A stretch of DNA of 24,000 bases from Paramaledivibacter caminithermalis DSM 15212 (GCF_900142245.1 NZ_FRAG01000006.1:2804-26803); one strand, 5' to 3'; shown: positions 11,411 to 15,761, numbered from the stretch's first letter. Numbers and translations: made by a program. The notes: generated by a model from the sequence alone, not told the origin.

Positions 11411-11443
11411 AAACAAAAAAAGAGCAAGTGATTAGCCTACTCT
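11411..11443 (-). terminator. Rho-independent terminator at the end of the agr-like operon
   Basis: Minus strand reads AGAGUAGG-CUAAUCA-CUUGCUCU (8 bp including 2 G-U pairs) followed by UUUUUUUGUUU. Confidence 0.6.
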
Positions 11444-11465
11444 TTCTCCTATATTATACAATTTT

Positions 11466-11509
11466 GCACATAAAACGTGATGAAATCTCCTTCATCACGT
11501 TTTATGTGC
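11466..11509 (-). other. Perfect 19-bp stem / 6-nt loop hairpin spanning the agrB stop codon
   Basis: GCACATAAAACGTGATGAA-atctcc-TTCATCACGTTTTATGTGC with no mismatch. The agrB TAA (11502-11504) lies in the 5' arm on the minus strand. No U-tract follows (AAAAUUG). Confidence 0.6.
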
Positions 11510-12077
11510 CGAATAATAAATTGACAAACCCAAATATTGTAGCTAAAGTCATCATATCACTAATTTCTTGAAATCCAAATAAATATATGATTATATTAAT
11601 AGTAAATATTATTTTGATAGCCTTTAAGCCATTAGTTTTAAAATAACTTTTTTCTTCCTTAGATAGTCTTTTATTTATGTTATCTATAGTCCCAATTTTT
11701 ATCCCTATTATATAACTTATCATATAGACTAATAGTAATAAAAAGATATTAAAGTCAATATGATATCTTACAAATAAAGCAATCATAGGAACTACTATGC
11801 TTAACATGAGACATATCATACTGTTTTTTGTATGATATCCTCCAAAATATCTTCTTATAAATATAAATGTAACTGTATAAACCACTACCGATGAAAAAGC
11901 AGCCAATTTAGGAATTAATATATTTAGAAGCATTGAAATTACGAATAAACTAACAATCCATATTAGATAATTCATTAAAATCTCAACTGAATATATTAAT
12001 ATCTCTTCCCTTTCTCTATCAGATTCACTTATTAAAGCCATGTATTTACCTAGCTTTACAGCAATATTATGTATCAT
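11502..12077 (-). CDS. agrB: AgrB-family membrane endopeptidase (AIP precursor processing)
   Basis: 191 aa and polytopic. The motif RRYFGGYHTKNSMIC has His and Cys 7 residues apart, as for catalytic H77/C84 of S. aureus AgrB. Its ATG overlaps the stop of the upstream regulator (ATGA). Confidence 0.85.
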   Translation of the reverse strand: MIHNIAVKLGKYMALISESDREREEILIYSVEILMNYLIWIVSLFVISMLLNILIPKLAAFSSVVVYTVTFIFIRRYFGGYHTKNSMICLMLSIVVPMIALFVRYHIDFNIFLLLLVYMISYIIGIKIGTIDNINKRLSKEEKSYFKTNGLKAIKIIFTINIIIYLFGFQEISDMMTLATIFGFVNLLFGT

Positions 12078-12793
12078 TTATTGGATACCTTCTTTTCTTC
12101 TATAAGCTCCTTTTCCACCACATCAACAAACTTACTTAGAAATTCTATGTTTTTAGGTCTTGTTACAAAACCTAATTTACCAAAGGAATTATTATCAAGG
12201 TTTTGTATGATGTTATTTAAGGATCGTCTAATAGATGATTTTTTTTCATCATTTTGATTAGAGAGGGTATCATATACCCTGCTTTTAACCTCCTCATCAT
12301 ACAAAAGCACCTTTATCATTTTTTGAAAAAGGGATTTTTGTTTTAGATCGCATCTATTATTTAATATTTCTTCTGTTTTATCATTTACCTTATTATCTCT
12401 GGAGATGTAGATATCTCTTTTTACAATGTTTAAAACCATATTGAGATCTTCAAATCTCATAGGCTTACCGACCTTATAATCGTAGTATTTCATACGCTTA
12501 ATAATTTCACTGTCATGTAGAAACGTTATTAATATAATAATTGGTCTATATTCTTTTAAAAGATATCCTACCAGCTTATCTCCTTCTAAATAAGGCATAA
12601 AATGGTCAGTTATAATGATATCAAAATCGCATGTTTTCAATATTGCTTCTTTTGCCTGATTGGGGTTATAAAAACCTACAGGGATAATGTCCTTATGAAA
12701 TTCTGATATATATTCACATACAATATCTACTTGCTCCTTAAAGTCATCTATTATAGCTGCTTTAATCTTAATATGATCACCCTCCCTTCTCAA
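12074..12793 (-). CDS. Response regulator, Spo0A paralog (REC domain plus Spo0A_C-like DNA-binding domain)
   Basis: The REC domain has all key residues: IIDD, IIITD(HFMPYLEGD), ILIT and GKP. The C-terminal roughly 105 aa aligns by eye to the Spo0A C-domain. SSIRRSLNNIIQNL matches SRVERAIRHAIEVA, FGKLGF matches FGYT, and RPKNIEFLSKFVD matches KPTNSEFIAMVAD. TTG start with an AAGGAG SD 5 nt upstream. Confidence 0.8.
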   Translation of the reverse strand: MRREGDHIKIKAAIIDDFKEQVDIVCEYISEFHKDIIPVGFYNPNQAKEAILKTCDFDIIITDHFMPYLEGDKLVGYLLKEYRPIIILITFLHDSEIIKRMKYYDYKVGKPMRFEDLNMVLNIVKRDIYISRDNKVNDKTEEILNNRCDLKQKSLFQKMIKVLLYDEEVKSRVYDTLSNQNDEKKSSIRRSLNNIIQNLDNNSFGKLGFVTRPKNIEFLSKFVDVVEKELIEEKKVSNK

Positions 12794-14186: not shown

Positions 14187-14279
14187 AGGTCTCTCCCCAA
14201 TCCTCATAGGTTTATGTCAATATATTCATTGATATATTCTATAAAAATTATTAAATCTTTACTATACATTTTTGGGGAA

Positions 14280-15509
14280 TTAATTTTTTATATGTTTTTC
14301 CAAATCATTATATGGTACACATATTTCCAACTCAAAATATTTATCTTTATTAATCCGATATTCTGCACCTTCCTCTACAATGGAAAACTTTAAATTCTCC
14401 ATATCTAAGTCTTGTTCAATTATCTTCAATAACTTTCTTCTTTCTATATCATTCAATATTATTTTTAAGTTAAATCCTATATTATCCTTTAATTCCAAAG
14501 TAATTATTGTATTCTCAAAGGTAACTTGTCCTAATACCTTATCTTTAAACATTTCCAATAAAAAATATATTTTTTTAAAATTATACCCTGTCATCTCTAA
14601 GCTTTTATCAATATGGTAATAAATATTTTTATTGGCTGCCTTCATTTTTTTTAGTAATTCTTCTACCATATCAATACCTATGACATTAAGGTAATCCTTA
14701 GTTAGACTTAAATAATAATATATTTCTTTTTCCGTACTGTTATATAATAATCTTTCAAAGGCCTTCCTTGGACTGCTTAGTATATCCCTATATTCTTCAT
14801 ACTGGATGGTTCTGCTCAATAAAATAATTATTACTATCATAAATGCAATAGTTTCTATAAAAAATATTTGTATATTAAAAAATATTTCTTTGACATCGAT
14901 ATTGTATAAGTCTATCTTCATATAAGTCTCAGTGTAGTTGGCACTGAATAAATAGGTACTAACAATTAATAGTACTATGGAATAGAATGTCTTTTTCTTT
15001 GACTTTGACAATAACCTCCACTGAATATTTAAAATTTCACTTGATTTTAGGTTGAATACTAAGCATATGAATAATGCAACTATTTGAAATATCCTAGTAG
15101 GTATGGTAAATAAAAATCTATAATCAAAGTAATAGCCACTATATTTTATCCTCATCAAATTCACTATTGGAGTAGACAAGGTCTCACAAAACAATATAAT
15201 AAGCATTACTAAATAACCACATATTAAAGCCTGTCTATAATTAAATTGAAAAACAAATCTTAAAGTAGCAATTATAAATAACATGGATATACATCCTATT
15301 GCTATAAAACTATTTATATTTTTTCTAATGATAATTAGAAGTAAGGAATAGATAGTGGAAGTCAATAATATTTTTAATATAAGTTTTAGATTATAATCTT
15401 TAGACACAAATATATTTCCATTTATTAAAACAATACTTGTTAAATAGACTAAGAAAACCTCAGGAATACCTACAACTATTACATCCAGTAACTTTACATT
15501 ATCTTCCAT
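14280..15509 (-). CDS. AgrC-like polytopic membrane sensor paralog 1, kinase motifs not recognisable
   Basis: Roughly half the residues are identical to the 12960..14186 product over the full length, with the same architecture. Start trimmed to ATG 15509 (MEDNVKL) after a GGGGGAAG SD. The track start at 15590 adds 27 residues with no SD. Confidence 0.65.
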   Translation of the reverse strand: MEDNVKLLDVIVVGIPEVFLVYLTSIVLINGNIFVSKDYNLKLILKILLTSTIYSLLLIIIRKNINSFIAIGCISMLFIIATLRFVFQFNYRQALICGYLVMLIILFCETLSTPIVNLMRIKYSGYYFDYRFLFTIPTRIFQIVALFICLVFNLKSSEILNIQWRLLSKSKKKTFYSIVLLIVSTYLFSANYTETYMKIDLYNIDVKEIFFNIQIFFIETIAFMIVIIILLSRTIQYEEYRDILSSPRKAFERLLYNSTEKEIYYYLSLTKDYLNVIGIDMVEELLKKMKAANKNIYYHIDKSLEMTGYNFKKIYFLLEMFKDKVLGQVTFENTIITLELKDNIGFNLKIILNDIERRKLLKIIEQDLDMENLKFSIVEEGAEYRINKDKYFELEICVPYNDLEKHIKN

Positions 15510-15673
15510 AGGTCTTCCCCCAATATTCATTCTTATATACTTATATTTTACAAAAAAATGTAATTTCCCACAAGATGTTTTCTTCGACATTATTTTACAT
15601 TTTTCACGTCCTTGTTATATCAAGCCTTTCACGATTTAATAATATGCTATAGGAATTTAAGTAAAGATTTTAA

Positions 15674-15761
15674 TTTATACATATCCAAAATGGTCAAAAA
15701 CATTGCATGTTTATACATATCAAAATATCCAGAGCTTTTAAGGATTTTTGATGTGTATAAA
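15674..15761. repeat. Three copies of an 18-20 nt motif TTTATACAYATC(C)AAAAT (two direct, one inverted) upstream of the agr-like operon
   Basis: Copy 1 at 15674-15693 is tttatacatatccaaaatgg. Copy 2 at 15710-15730 is tttatacatatcaaaatatcc. Copy 3 at 15741-15761, read on the minus strand, is tttatacacatcaaaaatcct. Copies 2 and 3 form an inverted repeat around a 10-nt centre. Confidence 0.7.

Follow-up and report, generated by a model that had tools for sequence, protein, structure and literature searches.

Agr is the textbook cyclic-peptide quorum sensor of Firmicutes, and its reception arm is assumed to run from an AgrC kinase to an AgrA regulator with a LytTR output domain. In Clostridia, agrBD cassettes with incomplete or unusual reception arms occur, and many clostridial agrBD loci (C. 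difficile agr1 and those of C. perfringens and C. botulinum) have, to our knowledge, no known cognate receptor. The agr genes can also be phage-borne, as in the agr3 module of the C. difficile phage phiCDHM1, which lacks a regulator and whose AgrC has a recognisable HATPase_c domain (PMC3901668). Here we describe a cassette with another unusual reception arm, located on the minus strand of a 24,000-nt stretch of DNA (hereafter the window) from Paramaledivibacter caminithermalis DSM 15212 (Clostridia, Peptostreptococcales, Caminicellaceae), in which two sensor-like membrane proteins, an AgrD precursor, a response regulator and an AgrB enzyme are encoded together. The reading we favour, with a confidence somewhat above even, is that the cassette is a self-contained, horizontally mobile agr variant with pseudokinase receptors, a Spo0A-like regulator and autoinduction through a Spo0A box (0A box).

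The cassette resembles the Staphylococcus aureus agrBDCA operon in its AgrB His/Cys protease/cyclase, in an AgrD whose leader precedes a Cys ring of five residues and an acidic tail that contains Pro, in the presence of a polytopic receptor and a receiver-domain regulator within one operon, and in its likely autoinduction. It departs from that operon in gene order (sensor-sensor-D-regulator-B instead of B-D-C-A), in a receptor that is duplicated and carries no His, N, G1 or G2 motifs, in a Spo0A_C-like rather than LytTR output domain, and in a promoter with a 0A box rather than LytTR direct repeats and no divergent RNAIII-type transcript. It also differs from phiCDHM1 agr3, in that no ATPase can be recognised in its receptor and the operon includes a Spo0A-like regulator of its own. 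The genes and the structures that close the operon are as follows (aa, amino acids; RBS, ribosome-binding site).

14280..15509, minus strand: sensor paralog 1, 409 aa, ATG at 15509, stop at 14280-14282
12960..14186, minus strand: sensor paralog 2, 408 aa, ATG at 14186 behind a GGGGAGAG RBS, stop at 12960-12962
12842..12973, minus strand: agrD, 43-aa precursor, ATG at 12973
12074..12793, minus strand: response regulator, receiver plus divergent Spo0A_C-like helix-turn-helix, likely true start ATT at 12772 (232 aa)
11502..12077, minus strand: agrB, 191 aa, membrane cysteine protease/cyclase, stop at 11502-11504
11473..11502, minus strand: perfect 12-bp hairpin directly past the agrB stop codon, whose last two bases it takes in; read from the sequence
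11415..11449, minus strand: intrinsic terminator, 14-pair stem followed by a T-run

The open reading frame (ORF) listing and our reading of the sequence place these five genes in one direction and tightly packed, forming a compact five-gene cell-to-cell signalling unit. Sensor 1 is separated from sensor 2 by 93 nt, the agrD start overlaps the end of sensor 2 by 14 nt, 48 nt lie between the agrD stop and the regulator TTG (12793), and the regulator stop and agrB start share the sequence ATGA (12074-12077). The sensor 1 ATG at 15509 stands 8 nt past a GGGGGAAG RBS; a longer sensor 1 ORF reaching to 15590 was rejected, as that start has no RBS. No internal terminator was found in the cassette beyond one weak 5-bp match within sensor 2. 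An earlier note on this DNA had listed the five genes with these positions, gaps and overlaps, together with the hairpin and terminator, and all of them were found as claimed. The overlap between sensor and agrD is a recurrent feature: of 11 related loci checked, 10 have one of 7-17 nt and in the other (L004) the two genes only abut, a pattern from which sensor and agrD appear to be translationally coupled.

The production half of the cassette looks orthodox, and AgrB and AgrD, described earlier as recognisable, are by profile and motif comparison genuine. AgrB scores 84.6 bits against Pfam PF04647 (cutoff 23), aligning over profile positions 3-179 of 185, and has its His/Cys dyad in the sequence GGYHTKNSMIC at residue 79; the GGxH-x6-C pattern is kept in the window and seven relatives (8/8 checked). 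In S. aureus AgrB the catalytic pair is H77/C84, seven residues apart. AgrD scores 23.8 bits against NCBIfam TIGR04223 (cutoff 19) and falls short of the Staphylococcus-specific PF05931 (13.8 bits, cutoff 22.7). Its sequence can be written as MKKLNKALLALVPALITFASTMVQSNA-CSIVF-GEPEIPKALRK, and a consensus of 13 family members reads leader-[S/N]-x-[A/G], then the ring C-x4, then [G/Y]E-x-x-[I/V/R]P. The ring is hypervariable between conserved flanks, being CSIVF in the window and CALGY, CCSGY, CASMA, CGGSW and others among 13 relatives, and a hypervariable ring is the usual mark of agr specificity groups. The S-x-A/G that directly precedes the ring Cys looks like a signal-peptidase site, and the small residues at -3 and -1 suggest that the leader would be removed right at the Cys. 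Clostridial autoinducing peptides without a tail rearrange from thiolactones to homodetic cyclopeptides (PMC8251862), and the SNA/C junction predicts such a product here, as for the cyclic autoinducing peptide of R. cellulolyticum (PMC8251862). Thus, of the earlier proposal that a thiolactone-type peptide is made, the Agr-type production stands, whereas the mature form may instead be a tail-less homodetic cyclopeptide (PMC8251862).

The reception half begins with the two sensor paralogs, which are 58% identical and share an architecture. Sensor 1 has about seven predicted transmembrane helices followed by a 178-aa cytoplasmic domain; sensor 2 matches a P. caminithermalis hypothetical protein at 100% identity, and its AlphaFold2 model has seven long helices in the N-terminal part and an alpha/beta domain at the C-terminus, with hydropathy peaks extending to residue 237. 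A polytopic sensor gene adjoins the agr genes in every locus. Sequence searches gave no sign of kinase ancestry: neither sensor had a Pfam or NCBIfam match at E<=1 or a PADLOC match, none of 71 sensor family members matched a kinase Pfam model at E<=0.01, and profile searches of the PDB, started from 14 close full-length sequences or from 18 diverse cytoplasmic domains, returned no kinase, only spurious helical-repeat matches. No invariant or majority column for a phospho-acceptor His exists in the 14 close homologues, and none in the 71 distant ones; the partial His columns of the family alternate with Tyr or Asn. DxGxG and GxGxG motifs are absent from the sensors, the cytoplasmic domain of sensor 2 has only 2 glycines in 178 residues, and the position of the N-box Asn is Y or D in the two window sensors.

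Structure prediction points toward kinases all the same. In the sensor 2 model (mean predicted local distance difference test score, pLDDT, 56; 70-83 over residues 280-360), the top Foldseek matches in the PDB are nearly all cytoplasmic or catalytic ATP-binding (CA) domains of histidine kinases, namely DesK, AgrC 4bxi (template modelling score 0.58, root-mean-square deviation 4.2), AgrC 6e95, VanS and VraS. The label 'AgrC-like', attached to the sensors beforehand, thus applies only to their topology and to the fold predicted by this medium-confidence model; none of the sequence searches ties them to kinases. The claim that the receptor is duplicated and has no recognisable phosphotransfer or ATP-binding motifs held: there is no conserved His and no DxGxG/GxGxG, and hidden Markov model searches show neither HisKA nor HATPase.

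The sensor family is sparsely represented in sequence collections and has no Pfam model. A word-indexed search of 5.8 billion proteins recovered only 14 sensor relatives, a second such search with the 71-sequence alignment added one further protein, and a profile search run exhaustively over 1.84 billion cluster representatives yielded 78 family representatives, nearly all from SRA or JGI assemblies. The members fall into about 16 long forms (387-464 aa) like those of the window and a majority of short forms (~265-300 aa) that end about 50 residues past the last transmembrane helix, without the kinase-like C-terminal domain. Complete short sensors are followed by agrD, regulator and agrB in one contig (L003) and by agrD and regulator in another (L006, where the contig ends), and the catalytic domain of the sensors therefore appears dispensable. 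What is conserved family-wide is the transmembrane bundle, with E16 and R138 near-invariant, and a juxtamembrane hairpin of the form LLxRTxxYExxKxxL...P...S. The sensors look like pseudokinase receptors by these sequence and model comparisons, and we read the lineage as a descendant of AgrC-type kinases that would have lost catalysis and then, in many branches, the catalytic domain itself.

The regulator retains the features of a receiver. Its Response_reg match is 26 bits in the window protein (cutoff 30.2) and 50.7-54.3 bits in relatives, and the receiver residues are intact, with DD, D63 (numbered from TTG), T and K-P aligning with Spo0A D10/D11, D56, T86 and K108. The best NCBIfam model is that of Spo0A (TIGR02875, E 1.4e-9), matched at residues 9-145 only, that is, over receiver and linker. 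A Spo0A orthologue was considered and rejected, because the TIGR02875 match amounts to 37.6 bits against a cutoff of 200 and is confined to the receiver region.

For the C-terminal domain, LytTR had no match at E<=1 in the window regulator or seven homologues (E<=10 for two of these). Spo0A_C (PF08769, cutoff 25 bits) is matched at 24.5 bits (E 2.7e-5) by the L003 regulator and at 17.1 bits by that of L006. A profile of eight C-domains ranked the Spo0A C-domain 1lq1 second of 177,635 PDB sequences, with an end-to-end alignment at E 0.12, and hhalign of the regulator family against B. subtilis Spo0A, a query sequence confirmed by its 150-bit Spo0A_C match, gave 97.9% probability over residues 2-260. 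On the C-domain alone, which is ~20% identical to Spo0A, hhalign against the single Spo0A sequence is weakly significant (E 0.0095-0.027), supporting and not decisive; the first such run (score 17.4) beat 30/30 shuffled controls. The identification of the C-domain as a distant Spo0A_C relative is, on these profile comparisons, reasonably secure for the family and borderline for the window protein. The earlier note's call of a Spo0A-type and not LytTR output thus agrees with the lack of any LytTR match and with the family-level likeness, the window protein by itself being sub-threshold.

The start of the regulator gene appears to have been obscured by an unusual codon. In Wukongibacter sp. M2B1, W. 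baidiensis and the metagenomic contig L012, the frame has no ATG, GTG or TTG before the conserved IKIKAAIIDD, and the sole plausible start is an ATT 7 nt past a GGGGGG RBS (L001 9415, L002 9406 and L012 ~12700, respectively). The window holds the same RBS and ATT at 12772, in addition to an in-frame TTG at 12793, and by this comparison translation may truly begin at 12772 and not at 12793. Because of the ATT start, public regulator calls are cut to 188-218 aa and have no Pfam (Response_reg) match. A separate observation concerns the phage-type relative L009, whose regulator gene has a canonical ATG start (MKIKVAIIDD) and is broken at 8443-8530, where the reading frame shifts within a homopolymeric A/T run (AAATTTTTTCTAGAAAAAAATT); a sequencing error, a pseudogene or slippage could each account for the break.

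A further link to Spo0A comes from the DNA upstream of sensor 1, where three features were delimited.

15583..15589, minus strand: consensus Spo0A box TGTCGAA, 80 nt upstream of the sensor 1 ATG
15510..15605, minus strand: conserved promoter/leader block with putative -35 TTGTGG (15573-15568), 17-nt spacer, putative -10 TAAAAT (15550-15545) and RBS
15674..15761, minus strand: three 16-nt elements (TTTTGATATGTATAAA-like) at an exact 36-nt spacing, an inverted pair (N20 spacer) plus one direct copy

The TGTCGAA at 15583-15589 is the sole copy on either strand of the window, and ends 9 nt upstream of the putative -35. The ~100-nt upstream block aligns almost base-for-base with both Wukongibacter loci, the -35 and -10 hexamers (read from the sequence) being identical in the three genomes, and DNA farther upstream cannot be aligned. 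Across 11 related loci, a TGTCG core occurs at -77 to -98 in 10; the exact heptamer is present in 6/11, TGTCGA in 9/11 and TGTCG in 10/11 (binomial P 1e-16 to 1e-19 against the background of the same loci), and pooling the three close chromosomal loci as one leaves the conclusion unchanged. Exact TGTCGAA stands at the conserved place in L003, L004, L006, L008 (twice) and L010, and boxes with one mismatch (position 6 or 7) in the Wukongibacter loci, L007 and L009. In the phage-type loci the core keeps its position though the rest of the upstream DNA is unalignable. Bacillus and C. difficile share TGTCGAA as the core of the 0A box, in which G2, C4 and G5 are contacted specifically, and functional C. 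difficile boxes lie at -75 (spo0A) and -78 (sigH) (PMC3485338). Every box variant of the cassette family keeps G2, C4 and G5. Both the operon's own regulator (autoinduction) and host Spo0A are plausible readers of the box on this sequence evidence. The suggestion that the operon is wired into Spo0A-type transcriptional control gains independent support from this conserved consensus 0A box in its promoter.

The 16-nt elements sit 165-250 nt upstream of the operon. An equal inverted pair with an equal spacer is found downstream of the W. baidiensis cassette (L002 11317-11370), and clustered half-sites occur in the phage-like contig L008 (4361-4433, 1586-1664) beside integrase, DndB-like and PemK-like genes. 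The elements may represent an operator, or else what is left of an att/arm site. A LytTR-like sequence, ACAGTTAAT, near 15770 was taken as a chance match in AT-rich DNA, no LytTR protein being present.

Relatives of the cassette are of two kinds. Chromosomal loci with the identical five-gene order are found in W. baidiensis, Wukongibacter sp. M2B1 and contig L012, which was the only contig found again in a metagenome scan for the module; a further locus cut at its 5' end (L013) retains sensor, agrD, regulator and agrB. Every chromosomal locus whose 5' end is contained has two sensors. Four chromosomal relatives lie beside dnaB/dnaI-like genes, with tRNAs also adjacent wherever that DNA was read, and not at the pgsA-speE site of the window. 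Ratios of nonsynonymous to synonymous substitution (dN/dS) between the window and the two Wukongibacter genomes are 0.09-0.25 over all five genes, 0.20-0.22 for sensor 1 and lowest, at 0.09-0.12, for the regulator. Purifying selection, together with the differing chromosomal sites, indicates that the cassette is functional and has moved. The placement of the regulator between agrD and agrB, which the earlier note had singled out, is real and persists even where the sensors are only ~25-30% identical: agrD-regulator-agrB is found in all nine loci with that interval fully contained, L005 (two long sensors, agrD and agrB with no regulator gene) excepted, and three further contigs end before agrB. 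Around the window's own copy lie the housekeeping genes pgsA, speE and valS, a Mur-ligase-family (folC-like) gene, and GNAT and LiaF/PspC genes. No mobility genes or tRNAs were found in the window (Pfam/NCBIfam, ARAGORN), and neither the window nor the DNA flanking the Wukongibacter loci contains phage genes. The description of the locus as an island between pgsA and speE without mobility genes is therefore true of the window; most distant relatives are, however, in SPbeta-like phage contigs.

These relatives of the second kind, seven in number and with sensor identities of 25-33%, stand on contigs of many small co-directional ORFs. The phage-type module lies directly past a DndB-like gene (phrog_5732, E 2e-85) and a gene of MrpR-type tyrosine-recombinase fold (PF22822/PF22823; phrog_5830), with an integrase and a PemK/MazF-like toxin upstream and an endolysin-like gene, HNH, helicase and TIR genes elsewhere on the contigs. 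The DndB-like protein matches the SPbeta family (phi3T, SPbeta, Goe11-14) at 26-29% identity over 82-85%, and its counterpart in Goe11 sits, downstream of aimR-aimP, in the interval from the yopP-type recombinase to the yopR position. The master repressor of SPbeta is MrpR/YopR (PMC10516654). By gene content the contigs look like SPbeta-like (pro)phages of clostridia that carry an agr-variant module beside the lysogeny controller. When searched by tblastn with the phage-type sensor P0033, neither 50,697 GenBank phage records nor the PLSDB plasmids gave a match, and IMG/VR scanned with the regulator family likewise gave none.

The phage-like contigs hold further genes of note. A PemK/MazF-like toxin gene is followed by a gene for a tetratricopeptide-repeat (TPR) protein of 226-247 aa and then by one for a 40-49-aa secreted propeptide (L003 1649-3049, L004 1477-2994, L008 1700-3201 and L009 2940-4394). 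Behind the signal sequence of the propeptide, three of these four contigs have a motif of the GDPP[DE]A[FY] type and L004 has ADEPHGY. The trio occupies the place held by aimR-aimP in SPbeta phages, and may represent a further peptide system, RRNPP-like and linked to a toxin. Past agrB, L008 (9743-10153) and L009 (9860-10273) share an ORF of ~136 aa (32% identity, E 4e-21), of which L003 has a marginal local match only (E 0.012); the window has no such ORF, the 117-aa ORF downstream of its own cassette being unrelated. JGI sample 3300003112 contains both a phage-type module (L009, ring CGGGF) and a chromosomal-type module (L012/L014 = JMSU01000067.1, ring CCGGL), and would be a natural setting for phage-host peptide cross-talk.

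We hypothesize that the cassette works as follows. The His/Cys dyad of AgrB would cut the GEPEIPKALRK tail off AgrD and cyclise CSIVF through its Cys, a step for which production is well supported, and cleavage at S-x-A/G before the Cys would give a tail-less ring, perhaps rearranged to a homodetic cyclopeptide. The two seven-transmembrane paralogs would be the peptide receptors. With no phospho-accepting His and no ATP-binding motifs, they cannot use autophosphorylation and phosphotransfer, and would probably steer the regulator by direct contact through the juxtamembrane helical hairpin, a contact that could tether and release the regulator or promote its dephosphorylation. Clostridial Spo0A is phosphorylated directly by orphan kinases, and because the receiver is most like that of Spo0A, the regulator is probably phosphorylated by an unlinked donor, either host Spo0A kinases or acetyl phosphate. 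The Spo0A_C-like domain would then bind TGTCGAA upstream of its own -35, giving autoinduction, and could also reach other 0A boxes. The cassette is common to Caminicellaceae chromosomes and SPbeta-like phage contigs, in the latter past the master-repressor gene.

Several observations weigh against this scheme. Peptide binding by the receptors, contact between receptor and regulator, and binding of the box by the regulator are each steps that we infer. The kinase-like fold comes from one medium-confidence model (mean pLDDT 56) with Foldseek E-values of 1e-3 to 1e-1. The Spo0A_C score of the window C-domain is sub-threshold (12.6 bits, E 0.14), and the AlphaFold2 model of the regulator (five-sequence alignment, pLDDT 37) is unusable, leaving profiles as the whole basis of the Spo0A_C assignment. 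The recognition helix keeps only the Arg equivalent to Spo0A R214, with E213 and R217 changed, and the DNA specificity of the regulator may therefore differ from the 0A box. The host's own Spo0A could equally read the box, and L005, which has no regulator gene, yet carries TGTCGAA 207 nt upstream and none at -77 to -98. L005 was considered as a natural no-regulator control for the 0A box and is ambiguous, since the box is present at -207.

A different division of labour, which we consider unlikely, would make the membrane proteins accessory factors in peptide making, export or resistance, leave the regulator to an unlinked kinase, and have host Spo0A read the box. MroQ-type membrane proteases assist S. 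aureus Agr, and a precursor-handling partner would suit the apparent translational coupling of sensor and agrD. This arrangement would also accommodate L005, with its two sensors, agrD, agrB and no regulator, the majority of sensor relatives, which have no signalling domain beyond ~50 cytoplasmic residues, and the fact that TGTCGAA is the canonical host Spo0A site (PMC3485338). It fits poorly with the long sensor forms, whose predicted kinase-like cytoplasmic fold would make no sense in a protease or exporter, and the sensors show no protease or transporter motif or family match, their only near-invariant residues being E16 and R138. The regulator, moreover, is kept between agrD and agrB in all nine contained loci apart from L005 and is the most constrained of the five genes (dN/dS 0.09-0.12). 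If the sensors are instead taken as active kinases whose motifs are unrecognisable, through a non-His acceptor or a heterodimer in which the paralogs share the work, then the intact DD, D63, T and K-P of the regulator, the paralog pair in every chromosomal locus and the kinase-like predicted fold would all be explained. We nevertheless rate such disguised phosphotransfer as very improbable: neither the 14 close nor the 71 distant members have a conserved His, the cytoplasmic domain of sensor 2 has only two glycines and no DxGxG/GxGxG, the two window sensors have Y or D for the N-box Asn, and most relatives have no such domain, the short forms examined still preceding a regulator.

The phage-type relatives raise another alternative, namely that the cassette is primarily phage-related, being either a domesticated remnant of the communication module of an SPbeta-like prophage or a host copy that eavesdrops on or jams phage signals, and not a density sensor. 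Its attraction lies in the seven distant relatives directly downstream of DndB-like and MrpR-like genes, in synteny with the SPbeta yopQ-yopR region, in the coexistence of phage-type and chromosomal-type modules in one sample, and in the 16-nt repeats upstream of the window operon, which resemble half-sites beside the L008 integrase and toxin genes. Yet the window and the surroundings of the Wukongibacter loci hold no phage genes, the chromosomal clade is a group of its own with duplicated sensors and its own AgrB and AgrD, and so its own signal, and the ring sequences of the phage and chromosomal copies seen differ; we think this origin quite unlikely. We tentatively propose a broader scheme, which we regard as possible though doubtful, in which Caminicellaceae-type clostridia and SPbeta-like temperate phages share one previously unrecognised system: a cyclic peptide and kinase-dead receptors would gate a Spo0A mimic that is fed by host sporulation kinases and occupies 0A boxes. 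In phages, next to the master repressor, this would be a second, arbitrium-independent channel that decides lysis/lysogeny or hijacks the timing of host sporulation, and in the chromosome a quorum input tied to the Spo0A regulon.

Comparison with other signalling systems clarifies what is distinctive. The regulator resembles Spo0A in having a receiver and a helical helix-turn-helix C-domain that align end to end, and its 0A box at about -80 compares with -75/-78 in C. difficile; unlike spo0A, its gene belongs to a peptide-signalling operon and also occurs on phage-like contigs, and the two are non-orthologous. Pseudo-histidine kinases such as DivL, with Tyr in place of His, and RetS have a kinase fold without phosphotransfer chemistry and signal by protein-protein contact. 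The sensors have no sequence relationship to these, and differ in being membrane proteins of a peptide operon whose catalytic domain is gone in many relatives. The phage-type relatives share with arbitrium (AimR-AimP-AimX) the placement of a peptide module in the same lysogeny-management neighbourhood of integrase, YopQ-like and MrpR/YopR-like genes (PMC10516654). Arbitrium relies on a linear peptide that is imported and on a TPR receptor in the cytoplasm, in contrast to the predicted cyclised peptide, membrane receptors and receiver-domain regulator of the cassette, whose window copy is outside any phage. Pfam detects no TPR protein in the window cassette, and in phage-type contigs the TPR and propeptide pair is separate and stands beside the agr-type module.

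In the full-text literature searched, which leaves out most subscription-journal papers, we found no description of this five-gene wiring. The conserved cassette points to another way to transduce a cyclic-peptide signal, a possible direct route from quorum to Spo0A-type gene control, and may serve as a model for reading orphan agrBD loci. Surveys of phage quorum sensing list RRNPP-type systems only (bioRxiv 10.1101/2021.07.15.452460), and phage-borne versions beside an MrpR-like repressor would extend phage peptide communication beyond the RRNPP/arbitrium type. There is also a consequence for annotation, as gene callers systematically shorten the regulator and the sensor family is absent from Pfam.

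The PADLOC defence models gave no match, and Rfam revealed no RNA family in or beside the cassette. The cassette is bordered by a 62-aa ORF (15866-16054, minus strand) with its own terminator (15858-15874) and by a 117-aa ORF (10922-11275, minus strand) with a sub-threshold DUF7678 match (20.3 bits, cutoff 27). A T-box leader (Rfam RF00230, 125 bits) lies at 9906-10140 on the minus strand, upstream of the gene for the GNAT acetyltransferase (9266-9790) and, beyond that gene, valS (6530-9184).

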